A stretch of 64,000 nt of DNA. It comes from an uncultured Bifidobacteriaceae bacterium (lineage in GTDB: Bacteria; Actinomycetota; Acidimicrobiia; IMCC26256; PALSA-555). The notes below the pieces were generated by a model. That model was not told the origin of the DNA and ran no database searches. It was given only the letters and a program-made list of their open reading frames with translations. The stretch spans positions 1,069-65,068 of the forward strand of contig CAZKTS010000288.1 in NCBI GenBank assembly GCA_964555735.1. The letters are read 5' to 3'. The translations under genes and the position numbers were made by a program. The first letter of the stretch is position 1. Every line of letters begins with the position of its first letter. This document shows, piece after piece, positions 3,552-53,018 of this stretch.

Positions 3552-3585
3552 TCCGTGCAGGATGGACGGGGCGTCGCGCGTGAGA

Positions 3586-8525: not shown

Positions 8526-8825
8526 ATGAGGAAGCGGCGAGAGCTGGGCGATGATGAGATGACCCCGCCAACGGCGCCACAAGGCGCGCCTACGGGGGTC
8601 CCGGGGCTGGCCCCTATCGTGGCCCCGCCGGCTGCGGAAGACGCGCCCACGGGGCTCACAGCGGCGCTGCCGCCGATCGAGCGCCGGCGGGTCGAGTCGG
8701 ACGTGCTGGTGGCGGTGAACGGGACGCGGGTGCGGCTGCGGGCGGGCAAGGTGCTCGATTCGAGGTACTACGACCTCGCGGCGATCGAGTCGCAGCCCGG
8801 GGTGCGCCTGACGGCGCTGGAGTGA
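8526..8825 (+). CDS. hypothetical protein (99 aa)
   Basis: ATG 8526 lies 7 nt after a TAGGAT box; the alternative start is ATG 8517. Contains the 14-mer repeat, which encodes PQGAPTGVPG. Confidence 0.5.
   Translation: MRKRRELGDDEMTPPTAPQGAPTGVPGLAPIVAPPAAEDAPTGLTAALPPIERRRVESDVLVAVNGTRVRLRAGKVLDSRYYDLAAIESQPGVRLTALE
8584..8597 (+). repeat. 14-mer core GCGCGCCTACGGGG inside a CDS
   Basis: Exact copy of the core. It encodes ..GAPTG.. in the gene at 8526. Confidence 0.7.
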
Positions 8826-12224: not shown

Positions 12225-12256
12225 TGCCGGGGATGGACGGCTCTACGGGCGGAGGA

Positions 12257-12262
12257 TAGGCT
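12257..12262 (+). promoter_or_regulatory. class-L box TAGGCT, 6 nt before sheath ATG 12269
   Basis: gaggaTAGGCTagcgccATG. Confidence 0.5.
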
Positions 12263-12268
12263 AGCGCC

Positions 12269-14764
12269 ATGTCCGTCTTCCTCCGCAGGTTCACGTTCGA
12301 TCCGGGGACTGAGGTGTTGCTGGAGATCGAGGCTGTCAACATCCTCGATCTGGAGCCGGTGTCGGCGGTGTCCGGCGTGGGCACTGGAACGGCGTGCGTC
12401 GTCGGTGAGTTCGAGGATGGCCCGTTCGCGACCGTGACCGAGGTGGCGAGCACTCCCGATCTGACGAACACGTTCGGCGGGTTCGGGTACAGCTACGCGG
12501 GGGTCGGCGGAAACAACCCGTGCGCGCGCAAGCGGTTCGCGGACGCGGCGGTGGTGCCGGAGTTCTGGAACGGCAACGGCCTGGTGGCGCTGAACGGCAA
12601 GCGGTTCTCGCGGCTGCTGGTGGCGCGCGTCGACACGAGCGTCGGCGAGGTGCAGTTCTCGCGACTCGCGTACCTACTCGGCGGCAAGCTGTTCTCGTAC
12701 GCGCTGACGTCGGGTGACACGGTGGTCGGCGATCGCGGCGCGGGCATCGGCGCCTTCACGGCGACGTTCACGGGGACGGTCGCGGCGCTGGTGAGCGGCG
12801 TGGGCGTCTACCCGACGCTCTTCGTCGGCGGCGAGACGATCACGATCGCCCGCGACAGCGAGCCGGCGGTGGTGGTGGTGTTCCAGGCGGCCGATCAGCT
12901 GCAGTCGCAGGTGATCAGCCGCATCAACGCGGCGCTCGGGTACGCGGCCGCGGTCGACTCAGGCGGCGGCGTGACGACGCTGTCCGGCCGCGTGGGCGGC
13001 ACGGGTGGGTCGATCGCGATCACGGCGGCCACGCCGGCGGTGCTCGCGGCTACGGGCTTCGTGGTCGGCGCTGCGAGCGGTGGCGGCAACGTGTCGAACA
13101 TCCTGCAGGTCACGCCGCAGGAGATCGACACGATCGTCAACGCGGCGAGCGCGGGCGCGGTGCGGGTGCGGCTGCTCGACAGTGGCCAGCTGCGCATGGA
13201 GAACGTGCAGACGCCGGTGACGGGCGTGCTGCGGATCACGGCTGGCGCGGCGCTGACGTCGTTGGGGTTCTCGGTGACGCAGGCGGCGGCGTACCAGGAC
13301 GCGCCGCAGGAGCTGGAGATCGTGTCCATCGACCCGGCGGTGGCGGTGGCCACCGGCTTCGCGATCGGCTCGGCGCCGGTGCTGTCGAGCGTGGCGGGTG
13401 TGTACCCGAGCGGCTTCGTGGGCGGCGAGCAGATGGTGGTGCAGGTGGCGGGGCAGCCGCCGCTGACGATCGAGTTCGACGCGGCGGATCAGACGCAGGC
13501 GCAGGTGCTGGCGCGCATCAACCTGGCGCTCGGGTACACGGCGGCGGTGGCTCAGACGGCGACGCGGTCGAGCTTGGCGGGCCCGGGCACGCTGTCGACG
13601 GTGGTGCCGGCGGGGACGCTGGTGCAGACGCCGGCGGGCGTGCAGTGGGTGTCGATGCAGACGCTGGCGGTCACGGCGGAGCTGCTCGACGCGCTCACGG
13701 TCAAGGTTCGGCCGGCCAACGACGTGGGAACGACCGTGGCGGCGGTGGCGGGCGCGGTGACGGTGCTCGGGCGCCCGGTGCAGACGGCGGCGTTCTCGAC
13801 GATCAACCCGCTGGCGCTGACGGCGGCGCTGACGGAGGCGCAGCTCGACGCGCGGTATCTGACCGCGCTCGATTCGACGCTGGCCAGCGCGACGGTGGCG
13901 GCGGAGATCAACCTGCTCTGGGCGGCGCGGCAGAGCAACGCGATCCGGGGGGCGCTGCGGCAGAACGTGGTCGATGCGTCGCAGGGCGGCCTGCTCGGCC
14001 GGTCGTGCGTGATCCGGCCGCCGCTCAGCACCACGACGCGCGCGCAGGCGAAGTCGAACGCGGCGCAGCCCGGGGTCGGGGCGTACCGGCTCGATCGGGT
14101 GTGGTACGCATTCCCGGGCGTGCAGTCGTTCATGCCGGCGATCGCGCAGCGCGGGCTGTCCGGCGGCGAGGGGTTCACCGCCGACGGTGTGATCGACGTC
14201 GGCGCGGACGGCTTCCTCGTGTCGGTGTGCTCGCAGCTGCCGCCCGAGGAGAACCCGGGGCAGCTGACGCCGTACGCGGCGGGGGCGATCGGGATCGAGC
14301 GCGGCAACCCCGACGTCCAGACCATGACGATCAACGACTACAAGGCGTTTCGCGCGTCGGGCATCGCGGCGCCGCGGCTCGACAGCGGCGTGATGATCTT
14401 CCAGTCGGGTGTGACGTCGGTGAACCCGCTCCTGCAGCCGAGCTTGCGCAACATCGCGCGCCGCCGCATGGCCGACTTCATCCAGGATTCGCTCGGCGTG
14501 CGGCTCAAGCGGTTCGGCAAGCAGCTCAACACGCGCTCGCGGCGGACGCAGATCGTCGGTGAGATCCGGGCCTTCATGCTGGAGCTGCAGAACTCGCAGC
14601 GCGTGGCCGGGTTCGCGGTCGACCTCAATTCTGGCAACACGCCGCAGACGCTGGCGCTCGGGATCTTCCGGATCCTGCTCAACGTGCGGACGTGGTCGAG
14701 CCTGGACGCGATCGTGCTGGCGACGCGCATCGGCGAAGCCGTCGAGATCGAAGCTGCGGCGTGA
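12269..14764 (+). CDS. contractile tail sheath protein (831 aa) with duplicated insertion domains
   Basis: Synteny is sheath-tube-chaperone(PRF)-tape measure. The C-terminal region (INDYKAFRASGIAAPRLDSGVMIFQSGVTSV ... RNIARRRMADFIQDSL ... GIFRILLNVRTWSSLDAIVL) looks like a sheath C-terminal domain. Confidence 0.75.
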   Translation: MSVFLRRFTFDPGTEVLLEIEAVNILDLEPVSAVSGVGTGTACVVGEFEDGPFATVTEVASTPDLTNTFGGFGYSYAGVGGNNPCARKRFADAAVVPEFWNGNGLVALNGKRFSRLLVARVDTSVGEVQFSRLAYLLGGKLFSYALTSGDTVVGDRGAGIGAFTATFTGTVAALVSGVGVYPTLFVGGETITIARDSEPAVVVVFQAADQLQSQVISRINAALGYAAAVDSGGGVTTLSGRVGGTGGSIAITAATPAVLAATGFVVGAASGGGNVSNILQVTPQEIDTIVNAASAGAVRVRLLDSGQLRMENVQTPVTGVLRITAGAALTSLGFSVTQAAAYQDAPQELEIVSIDPAVAVATGFAIGSAPVLSSVAGVYPSGFVGGEQMVVQVAGQPPLTIEFDAADQTQAQVLARINLALGYTAAVAQTATRSSLAGPGTLSTVVPAGTLVQTPAGVQWVSMQTLAVTAELLDALTVKVRPANDVGTTVAAVAGAVTVLGRPVQTAAFSTINPLALTAALTEAQLDARYLTALDSTLASATVAAEINLLWAARQSNAIRGALRQNVVDASQGGLLGRSCVIRPPLSTTTRAQAKSNAAQPGVGAYRLDRVWYAFPGVQSFMPAIAQRGLSGGEGFTADGVIDVGADGFLVSVCSQLPPEENPGQLTPYAAGAIGIERGNPDVQTMTINDYKAFRASGIAAPRLDSGVMIFQSGVTSVNPLLQPSLRNIARRRMADFIQDSLGVRLKRFGKQLNTRSRRTQIVGEIRAFMLELQNSQRVAGFAVDLNSGNTPQTLALGIFRILLNVRTWSSLDAIVLATRIGEAVEIEAAA

Positions 14765-15795: not shown

Positions 15796-16121
15796 GAGAT
15801 CCCGACTTCGGCGGGCCGGAATTGCTCGATGAGGTGGTCGGCCTGCGGGCGCCGTCGGCGCTCGGCGACGCACTCTTTCCGGCGATGTTGAGCTTTGCGG
15901 CGGACGCCGGCGAGCTACAGCGGGCGCGCGTGCGGCGGCTGGTGTTCTTGGCCCGCTTCGGGCGGCAACCGCTGCTCGGGTGGGACGACGTCGAATCGAG
16001 CGAGATCCGGCTCTACGTGGACGTCCTGGTAGAGCTGCTACGGGAGGAGTCGGAGTCGGCGCAGGCGCAGGCGAAGCGGATGCAGGCGCAGGCGCGGCAA
16101 TCGGACGACGACTCGGCGTGA
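15271..16121 (+). CDS. tail assembly chaperone, -1 frameshift fusion product (GT-like)
   Basis: The -1 frame is open from the slippery site (15756-15762) to TGA 16119-16121 with high GC3. It reads ...ANFF|RALRRCQNGELRDPDFGG... and ends 13 nt before the tape measure start. Confidence 0.65.
15756..15762 (+). other. -1 programmed ribosomal frameshift slippery heptamer T_TTT_TTC
   Basis: aaT TTT TTC in the zero frame fits the X_XXY_YYZ pattern. A T6 run is conspicuous in ~70% GC DNA. Its position matches the conserved G/GT frameshift of tailed phages. Confidence 0.7.
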
Positions 16122-18362: not shown

Positions 18363-18480
18363 GGCGCCTAATCGCCGCCCTACGGCGCCCGGAGCCGCCA
18401 GGGCACCCTAGCCCCCATCCGGGGCCGCCGGACGCGCCCACGGGGCGATTAGGCGCCCTGGCGGGTTGCGCGGCGGTGGT
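18362..18480 (+). repeat. composite intergenic repeat, copy A
   Basis: Contains GGCGCCTAATCGCC (18363-18376) and its exact inverse GGCGATTAGGCGCC (18444-18457), the 17-mer GGGCACCCTAGCCCCCA (18401-18417) and a CCCTACGGCGCC variant of the core. Confidence 0.75.
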
Positions 18481-24439: not shown

Positions 24440-24744
24440 TGGCCGGAGTACCGCCGCCGCCCGATCTGCCACCGCCCGCGCCTGGCAGCTCGCCACTAGT
24501 CAGCGCGGAGGCGTCGTTCCCGCCATCGCCGAGCGCCGCGGACATCTGCGGCTTCAAGATCCCGCCGATCTTCGTGTTCAACATCTCGATCAACATTCCG
24601 TTTCCGTCGTTCGCGCTGCCGAACTTCCAATTTGCGCTGTCGCTGAAGTGCGACTTGAACGACCCGATCGGCGCCGAGGTGAGTTTCGGGGGCGGGCGGT
24701 CGCCGACGGGTGACACGATGGACCCGATCGAGCAGGACTTCTAA
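24436..24744 (+). CDS. hypothetical Pro-rich / beta-rich small baseplate-module protein (102 aa)
   Basis: Coupled (GTGATG) to the amidase gene. Locally lower GC. Confidence 0.45.
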   Translation: MMAGVPPPPDLPPPAPGSSPLVSAEASFPPSPSAADICGFKIPPIFVFNISINIPFPSFALPNFQFALSLKCDLNDPIGAEVSFGGGRSPTGDTMDPIEQDF

Positions 24745-24868
24745 GCGCCTCGCTGCCGCGCCTTTGGGCCCCGGGCACCCTAGCCCCCACGGGGCGCCCA
24801 AAAGCGCGCCTACGGGGCGCCCACGCGGGCTCCCGGGGTGCTCCGGGGCCGTGGGGTCACTGGGGCCC
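24745..24868 (+). repeat. composite intergenic repeat, copy B
   Basis: Contains the identical 17-mer GGGCACCCTAGCCCCCA (24773-24789), AAAGCGCGCCTACGGGG (24801-24817), and ACGGGGCGCCCA twice (24789-24800 and 24812-24823). Confidence 0.75.
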
Positions 24869-25677: not shown

Positions 25678-26582
25678 GTGGGTGGGGCTCGGGCTACTGG
25701 GGCGCCGGGCCATGGGGCGCGGGTGGCATCGACGCGCTGCGCATGCTCGGCGCTGAGGCGGTGCGCGAGAACGTGGTCCGCGTGACGTTCAACGCTGCGC
25801 CGCTGTTCGATCGGCTGCTCGGGCCCAACGATGCTAGCGACCCGAAGCGGTTTCAGATCGTGGCGGACGTCTTGACGATCGGGCGCGACGGCGAGCCCGC
25901 GCGGCCGGTGTTGCCGGTGCTGGTTGAGGTGGCGCCGATCGAGCTGTCGTTCGGCGCGGTGCTCGATGTGACGACGGACCGGCCGCTCTCACCCTGGCCG
26001 ACGTACTACCGGATTTCGGCGACGCAGCTCGTGGTGGCGGCGACGGGCGGGCTACTCGACCCGGCGGCGAGCAGCCGCGAGTTCCAAGGGCTGTATCGGG
26101 AGCTGCGCGTGCCGACGACGGCGATCGCGACGCCGAGTCAGGACGTGGCGAGCCCGGCGGCCGGGTTCGACGTCGTGCCGGGGCTGCCGGCGCTGACGCC
26201 GAGTGATGAGGAGCTGCAGCTCGGGACGTACGTGCCGGGCGATGATGGCGACTACGCAACCGACTCGGGGATCGCACAGCTGCGCAAGCGGATCTTCCGG
26301 CGGTTTGTGACGGCGCCTGGTGCGTTCGCGCACTTGCCGGGATACGGGCTCGGGGTCCGGTCGTACGGCAAGCGGCTGGGGACGGCGGCGGTGCGTCAGC
26401 AGCTGGTCGCCACGGCGATGGCGCAGCTGCGCGAAGAGCCGGACGTGGTCGCGGTGAAGGTGCGCGCTGAGACGGACGCGCGAAACCCGAGCATCACGCG
26501 GTTCTTTGTCGACGTGAAAGCGGCGGCCGCGCCCGACTGGGTGACGTTCGACTACTCGTTTGGAGGGACTGGAAATGGCTGA
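25674..26582 (+). CDS. baseplate wedge protein with C-terminal gp25/GPW-like domain
   Basis: GTGA overlap. The C-terminus RKRIFRRFVTAPGAFAHLPGYGLGVRSY ... LREEPDVVAVKVRAE ... ITRFFVDV resembles GPW/gp25. Lies directly upstream of the J-like gene. Confidence 0.55.
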   Translation: MSGWGSGYWGAGPWGAGGIDALRMLGAEAVRENVVRVTFNAAPLFDRLLGPNDASDPKRFQIVADVLTIGRDGEPARPVLPVLVEVAPIELSFGAVLDVTTDRPLSPWPTYYRISATQLVVAATGGLLDPAASSREFQGLYRELRVPTTAIATPSQDVASPAAGFDVVPGLPALTPSDEELQLGTYVPGDDGDYATDSGIAQLRKRIFRRFVTAPGAFAHLPGYGLGVRSYGKRLGTAAVRQQLVATAMAQLREEPDVVAVKVRAETDARNPSITRFFVDVKAAAAPDWVTFDYSFGGTGNG

Positions 26583-32120: not shown

Positions 32121-32503
32121 CCACGCCGAGCGATGCGCTGCTCGCGGCGCGCGATCTGTCGCGCATCGCGCTTGCATCGGCCACGACCTTGCAAGACCCG
32201 GTGTCTCGCACCCTGGACGACTTGGCGCGCCGCGCAGGCACGACCCGCGCGCTGGTGGCGACCGCGTGCGGCGTCGACCCTCTGCTGTTCGAGCGCGTCG
32301 ATCAGGGGCGGCAGCCGATGCCGCTATCGGTGGTGGTGTCGATCGCGTCGTTGCTGCGGATCCCGATGTGGATGGCGCGCGCGGCGTGCCGGTCGTGGAC
32401 CGACCAGATCGACGCGCGGCTGCGCAACCCGAAGCCGCCGCGCCCCATTCTCGGGGATTCGTTGCCGGCGGTGTCCATCGTGGCGACGGTGCCGCAGCCT
32501 TGA
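32117..32503 (+). CDS. XRE-family helix-turn-helix protein (128 aa)
   Basis: GTGA overlap. RTLDDLARRAGTTRALVATACGVDPLLFERVDQGRQPMPLSVVVSIASLLRIP fits the Cro/C1-type HTH pattern. Confidence 0.6.
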   Translation: MTTPSDALLAARDLSRIALASATTLQDPVSRTLDDLARRAGTTRALVATACGVDPLLFERVDQGRQPMPLSVVVSIASLLRIPMWMARAACRSWTDQIDARLRNPKPPRPILGDSLPAVSIVATVPQP

Positions 32504-32513
32504 CGGGACCACG

Positions 32514-32840
32514 ATGGAGGCGCGCGCTGTAGAGCTGCTCGGGTCGCTGGGGTTGCCAGGGCTGGTCATCGGCGGCCTGTGGCTGTACGCGCGGCAGCTG
32601 CACCTCCGCAACGAGCAGATCATGGATCTGCGGCTGCGTGAGGCGCAGGACTATGCCTCGGTGCTGCGGGCTATCGACGAGACGCGCGTGCGTGAGGAGC
32701 GCGAGCGTGGAGATCGGATCTTGGCGGTGCAGCGCGAGGTGCACGCCACGATCAAGCAGCTGACGATGTTGGTGGAGCGCGAAGAGCGCCGCGACGATCG
32801 CCTAGACCGCCGCGGGTCATGGAGACAGGACGATGAATAA
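32514..32840 (+). CDS. N-terminal TM + charged coiled-coil protein (holin/BhlA-like or i-spanin-like architecture)
   Basis: LLGSLGLPGLVIGGLWLYA is a TM segment, followed by REAQDY...REERERGDRILAVQREVHATIKQL. Confidence 0.5.
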   Translation: MEARAVELLGSLGLPGLVIGGLWLYARQLHLRNEQIMDLRLREAQDYASVLRAIDETRVREERERGDRILAVQREVHATIKQLTMLVEREERRDDRLDRRGSWRQDDE

Positions 32841-33030
32841 CCAACGCACGATCGCGGACGTGGCGCGTGAGATGGAGATCGAAGAGGAGTCGGCGCGGCT
32901 CGAAGCGCGCGCGCGTGCACTGGTGGCGCGTGCCGCGGCGCTCCTCGACGGGCAGGCGCGGCGTCAATCCGGCCAGCATCGGCTCGATCTACCGCCGGAA
33001 ATGATGGCGCTTCGCAAGCCATCGGCCTGA
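32833..33030 (+). CDS. hypothetical small helical protein (65 aa)
   Basis: Overlaps the upstream stop. High GC3. Confidence 0.4.
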   Translation: MNNQRTIADVAREMEIEEESARLEARARALVARAAALLDGQARRQSGQHRLDLPPEMMALRKPSA

Positions 33031-33040
33031 GTGATAGCGT
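33031..33040 (+). promoter_or_regulatory. class-L box GTGATAGCGT, 8 nt before ATG 33049
   Basis: gaGTGATAGCGTttcgggccATG. Confidence 0.5.
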
Positions 33041-40393: not shown

Positions 40394-40566
40394 GGCGGGC
40401 GCGGCACCCGACGATCGAGCCGATGACGGTCCAGATCCGTACCCGGGCCGAGGTCGGCGACAACGACCGCACGGTCGAGCTGCTCACACGCCTGGCGAGG
40501 AGCCGAGGGTGGGAGCTGACCGTCACGCGGCGGCACCCGCGCCGGGCGCCCCGCCAGCCCGCCTAA
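40390..40566 (+). CDS. hypothetical small protein (58 aa)
   Basis: GTGA overlap (alternative start ATG 40423). High GC3. Last ORF before the non-coding region. Confidence 0.35.
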   Translation: MRRARHPTIEPMTVQIRTRAEVGDNDRTVELLTRLARSRGWELTVTRRHPRRAPRQPA

Positions 40567-40790
40567 TCGCCGCGCTGGCGCGCCTTCGAGTGGTCGCCCA
40601 CCCCTGACCCGCCCGCCCGGGCAAAGCGCGCCTACGGGGCTCCTACGGGCCCCGGGCGCCAATGGGCCTAATCGCCTCGCTGGCGCGTCGGGCGAGGCTG
40701 GGGCACCTAGCACCCGTCCGGCGCCCAAAAGCGCGCCTACGGGGCGCCTGTGCGGCCCGGCGGGCGGTCTTGGCCCTGGGGCGAGGGGAA
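40558..40790 (+). repeat. composite intergenic repeat, copy C (double)
   Basis: Contains CCTAATCGCC.CGCTGGCGCG twice (~40563 and ~40667), AAAGCGCGCCTACGGGG twice (40623-40639 and 40728-40744) and GGGCACCTAGCACCCG (40701-40716). Confidence 0.75.
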
Positions 40791-40793
40791 GTG

Positions 40794-40864
40794 CCGCCCG
40801 CGTACCCGTCGGTCGTGCGGTCGAGGGGATGGGCGCTCCGACATCGGGCCGGGTACGCGGGCGG
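40794..40864. repeat. 14-bp perfect inverted repeat (CCGCCCGCGTACCC / GGGTACGCGGGCGG), 43-nt spacer
   Basis: Arms at 40794-40807 and 40851-40864. Confidence 0.75.
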
Positions 40865-40947
40865 CGAGGTGCAGCCTACCACGGGCGGCCGCGCTCGATC
40901 GGGGTCGGGGCTTGGCCGGTCCTTGCCGGTCTTCGACAAGCCTCGGC

Positions 40948-40969
40948 GAGCGCATGTCCGCATGCGCTC
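40948..40969. repeat. 9-bp stem / 4-nt loop hairpin GAGCGCATG-tccg-CATGCGCTC
   Basis: Perfect palindrome arms. Confidence 0.75.
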
Positions 40970-41070
40970 GCGCGCGCCGCCCGGCGGGCGGCGCAATCGC
41001 GTCACGGCCGGCGCGGATCGGCCTACGGCCGATAAGCCTCTTCGATGATTCCCTGAGGAGAATCTCTGAC

Positions 41071-41128
41071 GCGCACGGGCGCGCTTGCGCGCACGTACGC
41101 ATGTACCCGCGTGGGCGCGCCCGTGCGC
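41071..41128. repeat. 14-bp perfect inverted repeat (GCGCACGGGCGCGC / GCGCGCCCGTGCGC), 30-nt spacer
   Basis: Arms at 41071-41084 and 41115-41128, followed by (CGCACA)n-like repeats. Confidence 0.75.
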
Positions 41129-41154
41129 ACACGCACACGCACGCGCGGGCGCGC

Positions 41155-41183
41155 GAGGCGGCGGCACCGGCGGCGCTCGGGGC
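41155..41183 (+). repeat. 29-bp perfect direct repeat, copy 1
   Basis: GAGGCGGCGGCACCGGCGGCGCTCGGGGC. Confidence 0.8.
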
Positions 41184-41190
41184 GGCCGCG

Positions 41191-41210
41191 GTGTCTACCC
41201 GAGTAGACAC
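41191..41210. repeat. 8-bp stem / 4-nt loop palindrome GTGTCTAC-ccga-GTAGACAC
   Basis: Perfect arms. Unusually A/T-containing for this DNA. Confidence 0.75.
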
Positions 41211-41344
41211 CGATCGGCGGGGCTGGGGGGAACTGGTGCAACGTGGCGGGATCGCGAGGCGAATCGGCATCGCCGCTCGACGCGCATGCACTAGCCTCGC
41301 GGTGTATGCGGTATGTGAGTGAGCCGAACTAGCGGCCCGCGCTA

Positions 41345-41373
41345 GAGGCGGCGGCACCGGCGGCGCTCGGGGC
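41345..41373 (+). repeat. 29-bp perfect direct repeat, copy 2
   Basis: Identical 29-mer 190 bp downstream of copy 1, and 34 nt before the class-E box at 41407. Confidence 0.8.
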
Positions 41374-41406
41374 TGGGGCTGAATTAGCGGGGCCGGCCGC
41401 AGTGGC

Positions 41407-41416
41407 GCGCTATTCG
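41407..41416 (+). promoter_or_regulatory. class-E box GCGCTATTCG, 7 nt before ATG 41424 (SF2 helicase)
   Basis: ggcGCGCTATTCGgggtgggATG. Confidence 0.5.
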
Positions 41417-41423
41417 GGGTGGG

Positions 41424-43848: not shown

Positions 43849-43894
43849 GACGTGCAAGTTCTCACAGACAGAGGAGAGGGTTAATCATGGCTGA
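43814..43894 (+). pseudogene. truncated 5' copy (26 codons) of the zinc-ribbon gene at 44247
   Basis: MTCKECHGCRLV then diverges, compared with MMCKECHGCRLVGWSG at 44247. It lies in copy 1 of the ~105-bp direct repeat. Confidence 0.5.
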
Positions 43895-44162
43895 TTTCTC
43901 ATGGGCGTTGGCGGAGCTGAGGGCAGGGCGGCTGGTAGCTCGGGAGGGGTGGAACGGGAAGGGCCAGTGGCTCGCGCTCCCGAGGGCGTATCCGCGCGGC
44001 ATTCCGATCGACAAGAACACGGCTGAGGCGACGGGGATCCCCGAGGGGACGGTCTGCAGGTTCTTGCCGTACATCATCGTGCGGACGGTCGATGGGGCTT
44101 TCGTGCCGTGGCAGGCGTCGCAGACGGACGTGATGGCTGAGGACTGGGCGGCGCCCCCATGA
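43887..44162 (+). CDS. DUF2829-family protein (Tad2-like candidate anti-Thoeris nucleotide sponge)
   Basis: FSWALAELRAGRLVAREGWNGKGQWL ... LPYIIVRTVDGAFVPWQASQTDVMAEDW matches the DUF2829 hallmarks (A...lk.Gk.v.R.gW.gkg ... pW..SqtDllAeDW). GGAGAGG RBS. GC is lower than in the neighbours. Confidence 0.85.
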   Translation: MADFSWALAELRAGRLVAREGWNGKGQWLALPRAYPRGIPIDKNTAEATGIPEGTVCRFLPYIIVRTVDGAFVPWQASQTDVMAEDWAAPP

Positions 44163-44176
44163 GGCGCGTTCCGCCC

Positions 44177-44281
44177 GGCGCGCATTCGCTGAGGAGGTTT
44201 CGCGGCAGGTGTTGCGGGATGACGCGGAGAAGGACGCGCGCGGCCGATGATGTGTAAGGAGTGCCACGGGTGCCGACTGGT
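44177..44281 (+). repeat. direct repeat copy 2 (~105 bp) flanking the DUF2829 gene
   Basis: Duplicate of the RHH gene's 3' end plus the zinc-ribbon gene's 5' end. Confidence 0.85.
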
Positions 44282-44747
44282 CGGCTGGAGCGGGGCGGGG
44301 CCGCACTTCTGCCGCGCGTGCTCGCGAGAGGTGACGCTGCTCGAAGCGTTCGAGGTCATCACGGCGGCATGGCGTGAGCAGCGCTCTCGTGCCGAGCGAG
44401 CCGAGCACGCGAGGGATGAGGCGGCAGCGTGGCTGCTGACGATCGCGGAGATGACCAGCGACTACATGAAGGCGGTCGTGCTCGCGAAGCAGGCGCTGCG
44501 CGGGCGCTCGCCGAGTGCGCGGCTGCTTGCGCGGGTACAGGCCGGGGATGCTCTTTCTCACAGCCCGGAGGACGAGAGACTCGTGGCCGCCCGGGTAGCC
44601 GAGGTCATGGGTGGCGAGAAGCCAAGGCCGCTCAATAGTCGTGCGTGGGAGGAGCGAGCCGTGCGGGCCGAGGCTCGGTGTGCCGAGTATGAAGCTCGGC
44701 TGCAGCAGGTGCATGATGCGATTGAGCGACTCAGGGGTGACTCGTGA
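44247..44747 (+). CDS. zinc-ribbon + coiled-coil protein (166 aa)
   Basis: CKECHGC...FCRAC at the N-terminus, with a helical charged remainder. Confidence 0.55.
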   Translation: MMCKECHGCRLVGWSGAGPHFCRACSREVTLLEAFEVITAAWREQRSRAERAEHARDEAAAWLLTIAEMTSDYMKAVVLAKQALRGRSPSARLLARVQAGDALSHSPEDERLVAARVAEVMGGEKPRPLNSRAWEERAVRAEARCAEYEARLQQVHDAIERLRGDS

Positions 44748-45046
44748 GAGTGAAACCCACTGACCCAAGGTGGACCGTGAGCGGGATTGGCGTCTTGACG
44801 CCGCGTCAGGCGCTGGAGATTGGGCTTGCGCGCGACGAGCACAATTGCAGGACGTGGACCCGCGCGAGTGGCGTTGCTCAGCTGTCGCATATCGTGACGG
44901 ACTGTGCCGTGCGAGTCGTGCAGGTCCAGCGATTCCGCGCCTCTGGGTCCGCGACACGCGGCGATCGCGTGATGATGGGGCGGGCACTGCGCACTCTCAA
45001 TGTCGCGGTCGATCTGTGGACCGAGTCGACGGGGCGGACGCCATGA
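44744..45046 (+). CDS. hypothetical protein (100 aa)
   Basis: GTGA overlap. Somewhat lower GC3. Confidence 0.4.
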   Translation: MRVKPTDPRWTVSGIGVLTPRQALEIGLARDEHNCRTWTRASGVAQLSHIVTDCAVRVVQVQRFRASGSATRGDRVMMGRALRTLNVAVDLWTESTGRTP

Positions 45047-45279
45047 GCGTGACGCTGCGGACGTTGCGGGTAGAGCGCCCGGACTGGGCGTGGACGGCCG
45101 AGCGCGCGGGGATGGGGTGGCGATATGTTGGAGCACGCGGAGGGCGGCAGGTGGTGGTTTTCGCGTGTGCGCGGCTGATCGGCGAGGATGAGTTTGCGAC
45201 GGAGTGGCGTGTGGATGATGGAGCCATCTCGCGGTCTTATGTGTCGTGGTGGCTGGAGTGCGAGGCGCGGTCGGCATGA
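45043..45279 (+). CDS. hypothetical protein (78 aa)
   Basis: ATGA overlaps at both ends. Confidence 0.5.
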   Translation: MSVTLRTLRVERPDWAWTAERAGMGWRYVGARGGRQVVVFACARLIGEDEFATEWRVDDGAISRSYVSWWLECEARSA

Positions 45280-46748: not shown

Positions 46749-47674
46749 TGGTCGTCGATGTACCGCGGCTGTTGGAGGCGCTGGGCATCGCGCAGGGCAA
46801 GGCGCGCAACGCGCGCGAGGTGTGGTGCTTGTGTCCGGCGCACGTCGATCGGTCGCCGAGCTGGTCGATCGACCTGAAGGACGGCAAGCACTTCTGCTTT
46901 GCGTGCTCGTTCGGGGGCGGCCCGCTCGATCTGGTGATGCACGCGCGGAAGCTGACGCGCGGCGAGGCGGCGCAGTGGGTCCGCGATTCGGGCCTGGCGC
47001 TCGATTCGGCGACGCTGCCGGAGACGCGCGTGGTGTTGCGGGTGGGCTCGCTCGATCGGTTCGTGATGCCCGCCGAGGTGCAGATGGCCGAGCCGTGGCC
47101 GGCGGAGGCGCAGGCGTACGCTGAGCGGCGCGGCATCACCCGCGAGCAGATCGAGCGGTGGGGGATCGGGTACGCGGCGACGGGTCGCTTGGCCAAGCGG
47201 CTGGTGATCCCGATCGTCGATTGGCTGGGGCGGCTGTCGGGCTACACGGCGCGGACGTGGTCCACCTCGCCGGTGCGCTACTTGACCCCGAGCGAGGCTG
47301 AGCACCCGCGGCGGGAGGTGCTGTTCGGTGAGCGGCACTGGTTCGCGATCGGCGCGGAGGTCGTGGTGGTGACGGAGGGGGCGATCGATGCGTTGGCGGT
47401 CGAGCGCGCGTGTGAGGGGCGCTTCGCGGTGGCGGCGCTGAGCGGTGCGAGCAATTCGCGATCGAGGCTGGTGCAGGCGAAGCTGGCGCGATTTGGCTGC
47501 GTGGTGCTGGCGACCGATGTGGATTCGGCGGGAGACGCCGCGGCGGCCGGGTTGCGGGTGGCGCTCGCGCGGCACACTCACGTCGTCCGGCTGCGATACC
47601 CGGCGGGCGTTGACGCGGCTGGTATGGATCGGGCAGGCTTGGCAGAGTTGATCGTGGACGCGGTGAGCCGATGA
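46748..47674 (+). CDS. dnaG: DnaG-type DNA primase (CHC2 zinc finger + TOPRIM)
   Basis: CLCPAHVDRSPSWSIDLKDGKHFCFAC is a CHC2 finger. VVVTEGAIDALAV ... LATDVDSAGD is TOPRIM. Confidence 0.85.
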   Translation: MVVDVPRLLEALGIAQGKARNAREVWCLCPAHVDRSPSWSIDLKDGKHFCFACSFGGGPLDLVMHARKLTRGEAAQWVRDSGLALDSATLPETRVVLRVGSLDRFVMPAEVQMAEPWPAEAQAYAERRGITREQIERWGIGYAATGRLAKRLVIPIVDWLGRLSGYTARTWSTSPVRYLTPSEAEHPRREVLFGERHWFAIGAEVVVVTEGAIDALAVERACEGRFAVAALSGASNSRSRLVQAKLARFGCVVLATDVDSAGDAAAAGLRVALARHTHVVRLRYPAGVDAAGMDRAGLAELIVDAVSR

Positions 47675-47979
47675 ATCGCACGGGATCGAGATCGACGTGG
47701 CTGCGCAAGCTGCGAGCGCGCGGCGTGTCGATCGCGCCGTTCGTGCTGGCGGCGGTGTGGCGCGCGGATGGGCGGGTTGAGGCGGCGGCGGCGCTGCTCG
47801 GGATCACGTCGCGCAATCTCCGCCAGCACTTGTGGCGAGAGGCGCTGTGGGGCGAGGTGCATGCGGCGCGTGCGGCTGCGGCCGCGGCGCGGCGGGTGTA
47901 CTTGCCGGCGTCGATGGCGCAGGCGGCGCGTGAGGCGCTGCGCGCGCCGCTGGGAGCGCGGCGTGTATCGGACATGTGA
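47671..47979 (+). CDS. Fis-type HTH protein (102 aa)
   Basis: DGRVEAAAALLGITSRNLRQHL matches the gn...AA..LGisr.tL.rkl pattern. Confidence 0.55.
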   Translation: MNRTGSRSTWLRKLRARGVSIAPFVLAAVWRADGRVEAAAALLGITSRNLRQHLWREALWGEVHAARAAAAAARRVYLPASMAQAAREALRAPLGARRVSDM

Positions 47980-48178
47980 GCTGGGTCTAGAGGTGCGGCT
48001 GAAGCCGCAGCACGCGGCGCGGCGCATCCGTCGGGCGCTGGGCGTGTCGGCGAACCGGGCCGAGGCGGCGCGGCGCCTCGGCTGCGGCGTGCGGTCGCTG
48101 GTGCGGTGGATCGCGATACTCCGGGCGGAAGGGTTCGAGGTGGAGCATGGATCAGGCGACGTTGATGTTGGCGGTTGA
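47963..48178 (+). CDS. second Fis-type HTH protein (~71 aa)
   Basis: ANRAEAARRLGCGVRSLVRWI. GTG start at 47963 or 47993. Tandem to 47671. Confidence 0.45.
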   Translation: MYRTCELGLEVRLKPQHAARRIRRALGVSANRAEAARRLGCGVRSLVRWIAILRAEGFEVEHGSGDVDVGG

Positions 48179-48502: not shown

Positions 48503-48934
48503 ATGGAAAACACGCGGACGCTGCTGAAGGCGGCGCACAAGGAGCTGGCGGGGCTGATGGGTGGGCGCGCGCGCATGGCGCGGCGCGAGCGGCTGCGGGT
48601 GGCGCTGGAGGCGGGCGTCATGGTGCGGACGCGCAAGGGTGCCGAGGTGGCGATCGCGCTGTCGCCGATCGACAGCGTGATCCACGCGATCGAGCTGATC
48701 AAGCTCGGCGAGGCGGTGCCGGCCGCGGCGGTGCAGCGGCTGCGGGCGGCCTTCGGCGCGGCGCCCGGGCGGCCGCAGGTGGCCGAGGCCGTGCGGCGGG
48801 CGATGGACGGCGCGGGCGTCGCGGCGGCCGCGCGGGATGCGTTCCTGCAGGCGATCGATCTGGACGTGGAGACGGCCGAGTCTCCGCTGGCGGCGGGGCT
48901 GGACGCGGCGCGGCGCCGGCGGGGGCGCGCGTGA
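48503..48934 (+). CDS. hypothetical protein (143 aa)
   Basis: AAGGAG RBS at 48491-48496. A GCGCTATTAG box lies 40 nt upstream. Confidence 0.5.
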   Translation: MENTRTLLKAAHKELAGLMGGRARMARRERLRVALEAGVMVRTRKGAEVAIALSPIDSVIHAIELIKLGEAVPAAAVQRLRAAFGAAPGRPQVAEAVRRAMDGAGVAAAARDAFLQAIDLDVETAESPLAAGLDAARRRRGRA

Positions 48935-49434
48935 CCTCGTCGGAGGTCGCGCGGGTGGCGCGGGCGATTCACCGGGCCTGGCGGTTGCCGGCCGCGGTGG
49001 AGGTCGAGGACATCGAGCAGGAGCTGCGCCTGCAGTACGTGCTCGGCGGCCGCGCGTACGACGCGAGCCGCGGAGTGCCGCGGGAGGCGTTCTGCTGGTG
49101 GTACGCACGGCGGCAGGCCGAGCGGTGGTGTCACACGCAGCGCTCGGCGCTGCGGCGCTCGGGGCGCGCCCCGAGCCGGCTGCCGGTCCTGCTGGACGAC
49201 GCGATCGATCCCGGGGTCGAGCCGTGCGCCGAGCGGGTGGCCGAGCTGGCCAGCGCGGTGAGGCGGGCGCGCCGCCTCTGCCGCTCGGCGGTGGACGCCA
49301 GGGCGCTGGAGGCGCTGGAGGCGTCAGCGCTCGACACGTCGGCGGCGGTGGAGTCGCTGGCGGGCGAGCTGACGCGCCGCCAGGCTCGCGCGGCCATGGG
49401 GCGCGTGACGCGCGCGCTGAGGGCGGCCGCGTGA
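48931..49434 (+). CDS. ECF-like sigma factor candidate (regions 2 and 4)
   Basis: EDIEQELRLQYVLGGRAYD....PREAFCWWYARRQAERW is region-2-like (eDl.Qe..l.......yd.....f..Wl..ia.n). The C-terminus ..AVESLAGELTRRQARAAMGRVTRALRAAA is region-4-like. GTGA overlap. Confidence 0.5.
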   Translation: MTSSEVARVARAIHRAWRLPAAVEVEDIEQELRLQYVLGGRAYDASRGVPREAFCWWYARRQAERWCHTQRSALRRSGRAPSRLPVLLDDAIDPGVEPCAERVAELASAVRRARRLCRSAVDARALEALEASALDTSAAVESLAGELTRRQARAAMGRVTRALRAAA

Positions 49435-50444: not shown

Positions 50445-52981
50445 TCGAGGCGCTCAACGCCTGGTCAGAGCATGACGGGCGGGTGTACTACGCCGCGCGC
50501 GATGCGGACGGCCGGGTACGAGTGCACGACGCGGGGCGGGTCGTGTACTCGTACCTCCGCGGTGACAGTGACCCTGAGCTGATTCGCGAGATCGAGCGGT
50601 CGCGGGTGCTGCGTGCGGTGGAGCGCGCAGGCGACTGGTGGCGCCTGCACTGGTCCGCGCCGTGGGCGCGCGATGCGGCGTGCGGGCCTGACGGGTGGTT
50701 CGCGTCGAAGCGAGTGCCGACGTTCGAGGCTGATCTGCCGGCGGTGCGGCAGTGGGCGATCGAGCGCGACGTGCAGGTGCAGCGGCCGCGCCTCTGCTAT
50801 TTCGACATCGAGACGGACGCGCGCGCTGGGATCGCCAACAAGGAGCGCATGCGCATCCTGTGCTGGACGGTGCAGAGCGCCGACGGTGAGCGCGTGCAGA
50901 GCGGCATGCTGGAGGCTGACACGGATGCGGCGGAGCGCGACTTGCTGCGCGCGTTGTGGCGCGAGTTCGATCGGTACGATCAGGTCGCGGCGTGGTACGG
51001 CGACGGCTTCGACTTCCCGGTGGTGTTTGCGCGCAGTAAGCGCGCGGGTATCTCGGTCGACGCGCGGCGGTGGCTGTGGCTGGACCACCTTGAGGTGTTC
51101 CGCCGGATGAATATCTCGTCGTCTGAGAGTGGCGAGGAGAAGCAGTCGCTGGCGCTGCAGGCGATTGCGATGGCGGTGCTCGGTGAGGGCAAGCTGCCGG
51201 GGTTCGGGTACGCCGAGATTTACCGCGCGTGGGCGGCGGGCGGCGATGACCGCGATCGGCTGCTCGCGTACAACGTGCGCGACGTCGACTTGATGCGGCG
51301 GGTTGAGGACCGGACGGGTTACATCGAACTGCTCTTCACGCTGTGCGCGACCACGGGCGTCTTCCCTGATACTCGCGGGATCCGGCCGATGCCGCAGGTC
51401 GAGACGTACGTGCAGCGGCTGGCCAACGCGCGCGGCGACCGCCTGCCGACGCAGTATCGGGGTGGGGATGAGAGCAAGTATCGCGGCGCGTATGTGATGG
51501 AGCCGCGGCGTACGGGGCTGATCCGTGACCGCGTGCACGTCTGCGACTTCGGCTCGATGTATCCGAGCATTGTGCAGACCTGGAATATCTCGCCGGAGAT
51601 GATCGTGGAGAAGCCGCCCGAGCCGGTGTTCCCCGCGTATCTGTCGCACCTTGCGGCTGAGTGGAAGCCGCCGCCGCGGCCGGCTGAGTACGCCGAGGCG
51701 CCGAAGACGCGCGTGTGGTTCCGCCAGGCGGAGCGCGGGCTGCTACCGCGCGCGCTCGATGCGCTGGGCGCGCTGCGTGCGCAGTGGCAGGCGCGCAAGG
51801 CGGAGCTGCCGCCTAACACGCCGGAGTGGCGTGACGCGGACGCGCGAGCGACCGCGTACAAGATCAACGCCAACAGTTTTCCGGGTGTGATCGGCGCGTC
51901 GGTGTCGCGGCTCTATTCGCGCGAGGCGGCCGAGAGCGTGAGCACAACGGGGGCGTGGCTGCTGGAGCAGGTCGACCGTGCGGCGCGCGAGCACGCCGGG
52001 CTCGATCCGTTCTACGGCGACACGGATTCCAGCATGGTCGCTGGCTGTAGTGATGAGACTTTCGCGGCGTTCGTCGCGTGGTGCAACGGCGATCTGCTGC
52101 CGCGGTTGGCGCGCGAGCAAGGTTGCGCGGGCGCGTGCACGCTGAAGCTGGCGTACGAAAAGGCGTTCGAGCGGATGCTCTTGCTGAGCGCGAAGCGGTA
52201 CATCGCGCGGCTGGCGCACTACAAGGGGCAGGCGCCGACGGCGGCGACGAAGCCGGAGATCAAGGGGATCGAATACAAGCGCGGCGACTCGCTGCGCCTC
52301 ACGCGGCAGATGCAGGCGATCGTGATCGACCTCATGATGGGCGGCGGGCTGGTGCGACCGCGCCAGGAGCGGTGCGAAGACGCTGAGGAGACGTATGTGG
52401 CGCTAGTCGAGGCGTGGCGCGACCTCGTGCTGACGGGCCCGCTGGAGCTGGCCGACGTGGTGCGGTCGCAGCGGCTGACGCAGCCGCTGAAGGCGTACGC
52501 GGGCAAGGTCAAGCTCGATGGGACCGAGAGCGGCGGCATGCCGCATGTCCGGGTGGCGCGGGTGCTGGCTGAGCGCGGTGAGGCGATCGGGGTCGGGGCG
52601 CGCGTGGAGTACGTGGTGGTCGATGGCTCGGTGAGCCCGGCGGAGGTGATCCCGGCGTCGGACTGGACCGGCGAGTGCGACCGCTTCGCGCTGTGGGAGT
52701 CGGCGGTCTGGCCGCCGACCCGGCGATTGCTGGAGTCGGCGTTTCCGGCGGGCCCGTGGGCGCGGTACGACCGGGTCCGGCCGAGCAAGCGCCGGCCGGC
52801 GGCGCACGCCGACAAGCTGCCGCTGTTCGAGGCGCCCACGCGCCGCGCCAAGGCGCCGGCGCGCCCGGCCGCCCCAATGCCCCAGGCGGCGCCCGAAAGC
52901 GCGCCTACGGGGCTCCCAGGCGGCCAGATCGGGCTCTTCGGGGCGGCGACCGCTGCTCGGCGCGGCAGGAGGCGCGGGTGA
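50441..52981 (+). CDS. family B DNA polymerase with 3'-5' exonuclease domain and C-terminal clamp-binding-like motif
   Basis: Exo I YFDIETD, Exo II LAYNVRDVDL, motif A CDFGSMYPSIV, motif B KINANSFPGV, motif C YGDTDS. The C-terminal QIGLF lies at nt 52925-52939. Confidence 0.95.
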   Translation: MIEALNAWSEHDGRVYYAARDADGRVRVHDAGRVVYSYLRGDSDPELIREIERSRVLRAVERAGDWWRLHWSAPWARDAACGPDGWFASKRVPTFEADLPAVRQWAIERDVQVQRPRLCYFDIETDARAGIANKERMRILCWTVQSADGERVQSGMLEADTDAAERDLLRALWREFDRYDQVAAWYGDGFDFPVVFARSKRAGISVDARRWLWLDHLEVFRRMNISSSESGEEKQSLALQAIAMAVLGEGKLPGFGYAEIYRAWAAGGDDRDRLLAYNVRDVDLMRRVEDRTGYIELLFTLCATTGVFPDTRGIRPMPQVETYVQRLANARGDRLPTQYRGGDESKYRGAYVMEPRRTGLIRDRVHVCDFGSMYPSIVQTWNISPEMIVEKPPEPVFPAYLSHLAAEWKPPPRPAEYAEAPKTRVWFRQAERGLLPRALDALGALRAQWQARKAELPPNTPEWRDADARATAYKINANSFPGVIGASVSRLYSREAAESVSTTGAWLLEQVDRAAREHAGLDPFYGDTDSSMVAGCSDETFAAFVAWCNGDLLPRLAREQGCAGACTLKLAYEKAFERMLLLSAKRYIARLAHYKGQAPTAATKPEIKGIEYKRGDSLRLTRQMQAIVIDLMMGGGLVRPRQERCEDAEETYVALVEAWRDLVLTGPLELADVVRSQRLTQPLKAYAGKVKLDGTESGGMPHVRVARVLAERGEAIGVGARVEYVVVDGSVSPAEVIPASDWTGECDRFALWESAVWPPTRRLLESAFPAGPWARYDRVRPSKRRPAAHADKLPLFEAPTRRAKAPARPAAPMPQAAPESAPTGLPGGQIGLFGAATAARRGRRRG
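52899..52912 (+). repeat. 14-mer core GCGCGCCTACGGGG inside the DNA polymerase 3' end
   Basis: Exact copy. The flanks (GAAAGCGCGCCTACGGGGCTCC) match the first core of copy C. It encodes PESAPTGLPG just before QIGLF. Confidence 0.7.
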
Positions 52982-53001: not shown

Positions 53002-53011
53002 GCGCTATTGG
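53002..53011 (+). promoter_or_regulatory. class-E box GCGCTATTGG, 7 nt before ATG 53019
   Basis: tcGCGCTATTGGgggtggcATG. Confidence 0.5.
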
Positions 53012-53018
53012 GGGTGGC

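Follow-up and report, generated by a model that had tools for sequence, protein, structure and literature searches.

A probable sigma-70-family factor of very divergent sequence encoded beside the DNA polymerase gene of an uncultured high-GC myovirus

Introduction

The DNA described here is a stretch of 64,000 nucleotides from contig CAZKTS010000288.1, deposited with the assembly of an uncultured Bifidobacteriaceae bacterium, and the whole of this stretch is referred to below as the window. It covers the greater part of a phage genome, on an NCBI contig of 83 kb, and in the middle of its replication genes lies a gene for a protein of 167 residues, at positions 48931 to 49434, which is the subject of this analysis. 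Our reading, to which we give a probability of about 0.65, is that the gene encodes a small and very divergent sigma-70-family factor of the two-domain type, that is, group 4 or extracytoplasmic function (ECF)-like. Residues 3-71 are almost certainly a sigma2 domain, and we infer that this factor is probably used to redirect host RNA polymerase to promoters of the phage.

The sigma-like gene

The open reading frame (ORF) starts with a GTG codon at 48931, the earliest possible start codon in its frame, and terminates with TGA at 49432-49434 after 167 codons. Its start overlaps the stop codon of the gene upstream (GTGA) and its own stop overlaps the GTG start of the gene downstream, so that the gene is part of a translationally coupled string and has no intergenic region of its own. 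The window has a GC content of 71%, at which long ORFs arise in all frames, and coding potential was therefore checked. GC by codon position is 0.78, 0.61 and 0.95, and the sliding signal of GC at third codon positions (GC3) moves into the frame of the sigma-like gene at about 48925 and out of it at about 49400. All convincing genes of the window are on the forward strand, and the identical protein is called on seven contigs in public assemblies. The ORF at 48931-49434 is a real gene and not a chance product of 71% GC sequence. Both peptide segments quoted for it in the initial annotation (EDIEQELRLQYVLGGRAYD... and ...FCWWYARRQAERW) are present in the translation at the position given there, and the gene does lie in the middle of the replication module, between the DnaB and DnaG primase genes and the gene for PolB. 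The coordinates of the gene, its domains and the associated features are collected in Table 1.

Table 1. Features of the sigma-like gene and of its surroundings in the window.
Feature	Position	Strand	Description and evidence
Sigma-like gene	48931..49434	+	167 aa; ORF listing, GC3 0.95, 218 homologous cluster representatives
Sigma2 domain, aa 3-71	48937..49143	+	Helices 3-16, 25-42 and 51-70; matches to Sigma70_r2, FliA, RpoE and SigE
End of sigma2 and start of linker, Q70-R-x-A-x-R-R-x-x-x-A-P-S-R-x-P85	49138..49185	+	Consensus QRxAxRRxxxAPSRxP in three alignments
C-terminal four-helix domain, aa 100-167	49228..49431	+	Helices 100-116, 120-131, 136-143 and 149-166; AlphaFold2
Partner gene, 337 aa	49431..50444	+	Translationally coupled to the sigma-like gene; synteny and alignment
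Two small upstream ORFs, Fis-type HTH_8	47671-47979; 3' part of 47768-48178	+	E = 0.015 and 0.012; below the 22-bit cutoff
GATAGGNT boxes, 8 bp	420, 8511, 9246, 12255 (12255..12262), 18488, 24871, 29551, 30480	+	All in the structural half
Repeated element of about 95 nt, five copies	~18366-18460, 24738-24832, 40560-40654, 40665-40759, 52833-52927	+	Mean column identity 78%

Relationship to the sigma-70 family

The initial annotation had described the protein as a phage-encoded, ECF-like sigma factor from a segment resembling region 2. With the query alone this segment is sub-threshold: Pfam Sigma70_r2 aligns residues 6-71 with positions 9-69 of its 71 model positions at E = 0.014 (15.6 bits, cutoff 24), among PDB sequences the closest is FliA region 2 (E = 0.055), and there is no match in PHROGs or, at E ≤ 10, in NCBIfam. 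A word-indexed search of 5.8 billion proteins with the query retrieves only the query itself, and with the family alignment only three proteins. An exhaustive HMMER search over 1.84 billion cluster representatives (clusters at 50% identity) yields 218 relatives at E ≤ 1e-3, 27 of them at E ≤ 1e-10. These homologues are 150-340 residues long, nearly all 150-230 and mostly 170-220.

At the level of this family the resemblance to region 2 is beyond chance. Sigma70_r2 is matched at E ≤ 0.01 by 55 of the 58 closer homologues and by 81 of 90 more distant ones (best 1e-10), a total of 136 of 148. PHROG 351 is matched by 18 of 59 members and PHROG 1740 by eight, both being annotated 'RNA polymerase sigma factor', and NCBIfam TIGR02937 (sigma70-ECF) is matched by nine of ten homologues with E-values from 8e-11 to 1e-4, the best scoring 41.8 bits against a cutoff of 42.9, and no homologue passes the cutoff of TIGR02937 or of any ECF subgroup. 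Compared with the PDB, the family profile finds FliA (8.5e-8) and the ECF sigma factor 9isn_F (1.3e-4, with both domains spanned), followed by CnrH, SigW, RpoS and SigA. Profile-profile comparison with Escherichia coli RpoE by hhalign places residues 19-71 on RpoE 41-90 (E = 1.1e-4), and a more global setting with 150 family members gives a colinear alignment of 173 columns (E = 2.9e-5). The RpoE sequence used here is 99-100% identical to database RpoE; its homologue search, which served as a positive control, returned only close orthologues (at least 86% identity) and hardly improved sensitivity. Two homologues, 40 and 43% identical to the query, carry the IMG name 'DNA-directed RNA polymerase specialized sigma24 family protein'.

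Predicted structure and conserved residues

An AlphaFold2 model built with a 59-sequence alignment is confident overall (mean predicted local distance difference test score [pLDDT] 92.7) and consists of two helical domains joined by a flexible linker, with neither region 1.1 nor sigma3. A predicted template modelling (TM) score of 0.57 is unsurprising for a pair of domains whose relative orientation is not fixed. The top 50 matches of the full-length model to the PDB by Foldseek are all sigma factors, with probabilities up to 0.96-0.97 and E-values of 0.06-1.5 that are weak because of domain orientation; the N-terminal domain of SigE superposes on the model with a root-mean-square deviation of 2.4 Å over 60 columns. 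Phage sigma factors of similar size head the matches in the BFVD viral structure library (probability 1.00, 160-178 columns). The structure prediction proposed in the initial annotation thus returned sigma factors as nearest neighbours.

The sigma2 domain carries a region 2.1/2.2 motif, E26-D27-I-E-Q30-E31, and a helix resembling regions 2.3/2.4, F54-C-W-W-Y...W66..Q70-R71. Across the 59 sequences P20, D27, Q30 and R71 are invariant and A10, W17, E31 (at least 90%), W66, Q70 and R83 nearly so; the same set recurs in a 91-sequence alignment, in which D27, Q30 and E31 are nearly invariant. These three residues align with RpoE DVVQE and FliA DLMQA, which is the D-x-x-Q-E motif of region 2.2. In sigma70, region 2.2 (D403/Q406/E407) binds the beta' clamp helices. 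This contact between sigma region 2.2 and the beta' clamp is summarized in PMC12276001. A loop, D-P-x-R-G, and the helix with W66, Q70 and R71 are located where the −10-reading loop and regions 2.3/2.4 of ECF sigma factors lie. After the D-x-x-Q-E helix, the most conserved stretch of the family spans the end of sigma2 and the beginning of the linker (Table 1). The linker itself is about 28 residues long (approximately 72-99), with variable residues at 86-99 and a pLDDT of 61-73 over residues 81-100.

One could suppose that the protein is an unrelated helical phage protein and that its likeness to region 2 is a chance motif in an Ala/Arg-rich, high-GC product, as might be said of single-sequence matches that are all sub-threshold. 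We regard this as scarcely credible, because the family evidence agrees across Pfam, NCBIfam, PHROGs, the PDB and two structure libraries, and the functional motif of sigma2 is where the invariant residues fall. The assignment of residues 3-71 to sigma2 follows from the family matches to sigma factors in these four collections together with a predicted structure that resembles sigma factors. The proposal of a phage-encoded, ECF-like member of the sigma-70 family is therefore sustained for sigma2 by transitive homology, profile-profile comparison and structure prediction.

The C-terminal domain

A more complex picture is seen with the C-terminal domain, for which the initial annotation had proposed a region-4-like helix-turn-helix (HTH). 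The domain is confidently predicted (pLDDT of more than 90 within the full-length model, 94.4 for the domain modelled alone), and its four helices have lengths and an order like those of sigma4. When the family is aligned to 9isn_F by HMMER, or its homologues to TIGR02937, SigW, ShbA and planctomycete ECF models, the alignments continue through the linker; those of the homologues to ECF models reach about position 130-143 of 165, thereby covering, with low confidence, region 4.1 and the first helix of the HTH. The ECF-model alignments place the family pattern ER-x-AL-x-AL..G-D...AA..L on the sigma4 pattern qRe-l-L..G-s..EiA..L, and a permissive hhalign comparison with RpoE gives the same colinear placement, again at low confidence.

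Several observations weigh against the sigma-factor reading. None of the 148 homologues matches the Pfam models Sigma70_r4, Sigma70_r4_2 or Sigma70_ECF, and RpoE orthologues, serving as a positive control, carry all four Pfam domains. When 40 C-terminal domains were isolated and compared with Pfam, no sigma-related match was obtained; the C-terminal-domain profile finds short UBA-type motifs (aLvatGGDvdaAaekL) at E of about 1e-3, and its sole sigma-like match is the PhyR sigma-like domain at E = 0.13. Foldseek with the domain-only model retrieves no sigma4 structure from the PDB, and hhalign of the C-terminal domain with RpoE is null. Many homologues have an insertion of 10-12 residues exactly at the would-be HTH turn. 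At the other end, the N-terminus of the protein lacks a first helix that is present in most homologues, and the query alone is under every curated threshold. Finally, no ECF-like pattern emerged when some 8 kb of intergenic DNA was searched exhaustively for a recurrent bipartite motif (a 5-mer, 13-19 intervening nucleotides and a 4-mer).

Among the profiles named in the initial annotation, Sigma70_r2 is thus recovered at the family level and Sigma70_r4 and the ECF Pfam models are not; for the region-4-like HTH there is a low-confidence colinear extension into region 4.1, and no independent match to sigma4. Either the domain is a sigma4 that has diverged strongly, comparable to the compact C-terminal domain of phiEco32 gp36, or it is another kind of helical module.

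Genomic context and the partner gene

The left half of the window encodes a Mu-F-like head protein, the tail sheath and other large structural genes, with a UvrD-type helicase gene at 36.9 kb, and the right half encodes a ResIII/DEAD helicase, a Tad2-like anti-Thoeris protein, DnaB, DnaG primase, PolB, RecA, an SbcC-like ATPase and a PDDEXK nuclease. The order of primase, small ORFs, the sigma-like gene, a partner of 303-377 residues, PolB, two genes of no assigned function, RecA, an Mre11-like gene (Metallophos) and an SbcC-like gene is conserved, with at least five independent occurrences on contigs of 22-93 kb (L007, L013, L014, L005 and an 85-kb JGI contig). An IMG/VR contig of 52% GC has the same arrangement, and synteny beside PolB spans 52-72% GC. 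Wherever a homologue has enough flanking DNA (in the contigs of the window, the 85-kb JGI contig, L007, L010, L013 and L014) its context is this same phage replication module, and no bacterial context was found among the homologues examined.

This distribution bears on whether the protein is a host-derived auxiliary sigma factor that reprograms host regulons (stress, development), in the manner of the sporulation-like sigma factors of Bacillus phages. Phage sigma factors acting on host genes are documented (PMC9429907), and the best family matches are to ECF-type models. Such an origin and role nevertheless appear improbable, given that every context that can be judged is a phage replication module, that the place beside PolB is fixed across phages of 52-72% GC, and that similarity to cellular sigma factors is too low for a recent capture, the homologues falling below the curated cutoffs for cellular sigma factors.

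Between the sigma-like gene and PolB, in all syntenic contigs, lies the partner gene. Five partner sequences share 46 invariant columns, including a zinc ribbon, ADCxxCGGxSD...CPYCG, and in the protein a conserved helical domain at the centre is followed by a beta-rich domain at the C-terminus. Comparison with the family libraries and the PDB gives only weak zinc-ribbon matches, with no recognizable family and no solved relative. There is no match to an anti-sigma family, and the CxxC...CxxC ribbon differs from the HxxxCxxC ZAS motif.

Two Fis-type HTH ORFs had also been reported upstream of the sigma-like gene; HTH_8 matches are indeed found there, but they are sub-threshold (Table 1). The two ORFs lie in overlapping frames. 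The C-terminal peptide of the second, ...SLVRWIAILRAEGFEV, is kept in L007 as YRTLKRWISQLRTAGFEV, and because of this conservation the 47768-48178 frame is probably a real small gene missed by gene callers. Among other features of the window, we note that the Tad2-like (Thoeris anti-defence 2) protein of 91 residues at 43887-44162 on the forward strand matches Pfam at E = 2.6e-22, and that three stretches of 0.9-1.1 kb (25678-26559, 32121-33030 and 44163-45245) have no ORF passing the GC3 filter and may hold atypical genes or non-coding elements.

The phage belongs to a lineage without a cultured relative. The replication module has no DNA match in the phage database, in which tblastn with the sigma-like protein gives one weak match, to Stappia phage SI01 (E = 0.5). 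PolB resembles that of haloviruses at only 25% identity, the tail sheath has no match in the phage database, and exact 45-mer and PolB searches of GTDB genomes returned no match. The tail sheath (12269-14764) has relatives at 30-62% identity on at least 80 uncultured viral contigs (IMG/VR, L016-L095), with GC contents of 44-72% and lengths up to about 100 kb. No cultured phage is among them, and this points to a large, uncharacterized myovirus lineage. The sigma-like family is carried by an uncultured lineage of myoviruses of roughly 55-100 kb.

Promoter-like boxes and repeated elements

The initial annotation had linked the sigma-like gene to promoter-like boxes without an obvious −35, and a box of this kind exists. 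The 8-bp sequence GATAGGNT (the L-box) is over-represented in the late region, with eight copies where 1.37 are expected, a count that none of 100 shuffles reaches, and no −35 is conserved at these copies. Seven of the eight are 6-7 nt before a start codon with no Shine-Dalgarno sequence between; the eighth is 21 nt upstream of a start codon, with AGGAG between. This geometry fits, and suggests, the −10 hexamer (TAGGCT, of the form TAnnnT) of leaderless or near-leaderless late mRNAs, and the boxes are candidate late promoters. Variants of GATAGGNT are present near 3582, 11262, 16119, 33032 and 60231.

In four of the eight GATAGGNT copies the sequence is TGATAGGCT, an extended −10 of the form TGnTAnnnT, a form shared by the related boxes TGATACGCT at 16119 and TGATAGCGT at 33032. 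Primary sigma factors read an extended −10 without a −35 by way of region 3.0, which contacts the TG, and a two-domain sigma factor is without region 3.0. A phage sigma factor is therefore not needed to explain a box without a −35, since a primary sigma factor can read the extended −10; the exact conservation of all eight GATAGGNT positions argues for a reader more specific than the housekeeping sigma factor. Because the search for a bipartite motif was negative, any pairing of a box with the sigma-like protein is made by inference, and we consider it possible, though not probable, that the L-box is its target.

In the relatives a normal Shine-Dalgarno sequence precedes the sheath gene. A box of the GTG[AG][TG]A type is found 20-35 nt further upstream at 24% of 50 loci (3.7% of control windows), and TGnTAnnnT occurs upstream of the sheath gene at 16% of the 50 loci (1.5% of control windows). 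Over-representation of 8-mers in 13 related structural loci mostly reflects codon effects and reveals no shared box. GATAGGCT and GCGCCTACGGGG are not kept as exact boxes in related replication-module loci. A sigma54 −24/−12 reading of GGCACCCTAGCCCCC was rejected on inspection, as the −12 GC element is absent.

These findings on promoters bear on whether the protein is a promoter-specificity factor or instead a sigma2-domain protein that binds the beta' clamp helices without promoter specificity, as a decoy or inhibitor displacing host sigma factors so that host transcription is shut off, or as an adaptor bringing another phage protein, for example the zinc-ribbon partner, to the polymerase. 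The core-binding part (D-x-x-Q-E, sigma2) is the only one securely recognizable, the C-terminal domain is not detectable as sigma4, no cognate bipartite promoter was found and the adjacent partner gene is strictly co-conserved, as such a role would have it. We nevertheless think a decoy or adaptor rather unlikely: the DNA-facing W66, Q70 and R71 and the D-P-x-R-G loop are as conserved as the core-binding motif and would be superfluous in a pure decoy, and the nearest neighbours in sequence and structure are genuine sigma factors.

Other repeated sequences are present in the window. A box, GCGCTATTSGGGGTGG, at 41407-41422 and 53002-53017 on the forward strand lies directly against the start codon ATG of two genes, the first of the replication module (41424) and the post-PolB gene (53019), and the syntenic post-PolB position has CCATTGGGGGGG in L007 and TTATAGGCAGGGC-ATG in L013. 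The element of about 95 nt, with five copies (Table 1) and partial copies at 8584 and 8641, contains the blocks CCTAATCGCC and (G)GCACCCTAGCCCCC and an invariant core, AAAGCGCGCCTACGGGGC. It is found where gene blocks end, 80-120 nt before the next gene begins, and could be a terminator, operator or promoter; Rfam and tRNA scans of the window were empty, and the element has no Rfam match. Two of its copies lie in a 1-kb non-coding region (40394-41423) that separates the structural and replication modules and that also contains a direct repeat, AGGCGGCGGCACCGGCGGCGCTCGGGG (41157 and 41347), and CACGCACACGCACGC-type tracts. This region is a candidate origin or early control region.

Comparison with characterized sigma factors

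The group 4 (ECF) sigma factors, such as RpoE, are similar in size to the protein described here (167 residues; 170-220 in the family) and like it have two helical domains and a linker, no region 1.1 or region 3, and the D-x-x-Q-E, D-P-x-R-G and W...R motifs in sigma2. The phage family differs in falling below the TIGR02937 and ECF subgroup cutoffs, in having no Pfam r4 match and, in many members, an insertion at the would-be HTH turn, and in its conserved linker RRxxxAPSRxP and exclusively phage context. Its locus also differs in lacking a recognizable anti-sigma gene, and the motif search turned up no promoter of the AAC/CGT type.

The closest characterized analogue is gp36 of phage phiEco32, a distant sigma homologue with a sigma2-like N-terminal domain and a compact sigma4-like C-terminal domain (PMC12276001). 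It recognizes AATGTA, a motif centred at −11.5, in both middle and late promoters and depends on a second phage protein, gp79, which stabilizes the C-terminal domain (PMC12276001). The protein of the window is likewise a distant, phage-encoded sigma homologue with a sigma2-like N-terminal domain and a compact, atypical C-terminal domain, and its conserved, translationally coupled partner may be likened to gp79. That partner, however, is a zinc-ribbon protein of 337 residues unrelated to any solved structure, and phiEco32 is a podovirus, whereas the phage described here is a high-GC myovirus.

A second comparison is with gp55 of T4 (which acts with gp33 and the gp45 clamp), another small phage sigma factor whose secure homology is limited to region 2. 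The late promoters of T4 consist of a single 8-bp −10 box without a −35, and an 8-bp sequence without a conserved −35, GATAGGNT, marks the late genes here, a likeness in promoter architecture only. In contrast to gp55, the protein here has a well-folded C-terminal domain, and no sliding-clamp gene was identified in the window. The BFVD neighbours (among them the sigma factor of Synechococcus phage S-CBWM1 and a 'Sigma70-ECF' protein of an uncultured Caudovirales member; 143-204 residues) are the best full-length structural matches; they differ in sequence (15-18% identity) and have TM-scores of 0.3-0.4, which are low because domain orientation differs.

A proposed role in phage transcription

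A plausible scenario is that the sigma-like gene would be expressed together with the replication genes, since it is translationally coupled inside the DnaB-primase-PolB string. The sigma2 domain may then bind the beta' clamp helices of the host core RNA polymerase in competition with host sigma factors, and the holoenzyme would initiate transcription where a −10-like element is the main determinant of a phage promoter, with promoters of the structural (late) genes as the most plausible targets. At the RNA-exit channel and the beta flap, sigma3.2 and sigma4 would be replaced by the conserved linker and the atypical C-terminal domain, and the zinc-ribbon partner may assist, by analogy with phiEco32 gp36 and gp79.

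A more specific version, suggested by analogy, is that the sigma2 protein and the zinc-ribbon partner would form a phage-specific two-component initiation system like gp36-gp79 or gp55-gp33, in which the C-terminal domain would not be a DNA-reading sigma4 and the −35-less GATAGGNT would be read 6-7 nt before start codons to give leaderless late mRNAs. In this version the fixed place beside PolB could also reflect a coupling of late or origin transcription to replication. Taken as a whole this version is speculative and we hold it to be unlikely.

Temporal control by sigma factors that phages themselves encode is a classic strategy, and as a kind such proteins are already known. Sigma homologues are carried by about 13% of sequenced phages (PMC9429907), and annotation pipelines already label some of the present homologues 'sigma24'. 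What is new is that a protein under all curated thresholds can be recognized as a true sigma2 protein, and that it represents a large family (218 clusters at 50% identity) which is phage-only in all contexts that can be judged and has a fixed place between primase and PolB. New, too, is the setting, an uncultured and widespread high-GC myovirus lineage in which members of the family have a C-terminal domain of atypical character and a partner gene that looks obligatory. If the sigma-like protein reads the short late boxes, it would provide a further natural example of −10-centred promoter recognition, as well as a compact orthogonal sigma/promoter pair for high-GC hosts.

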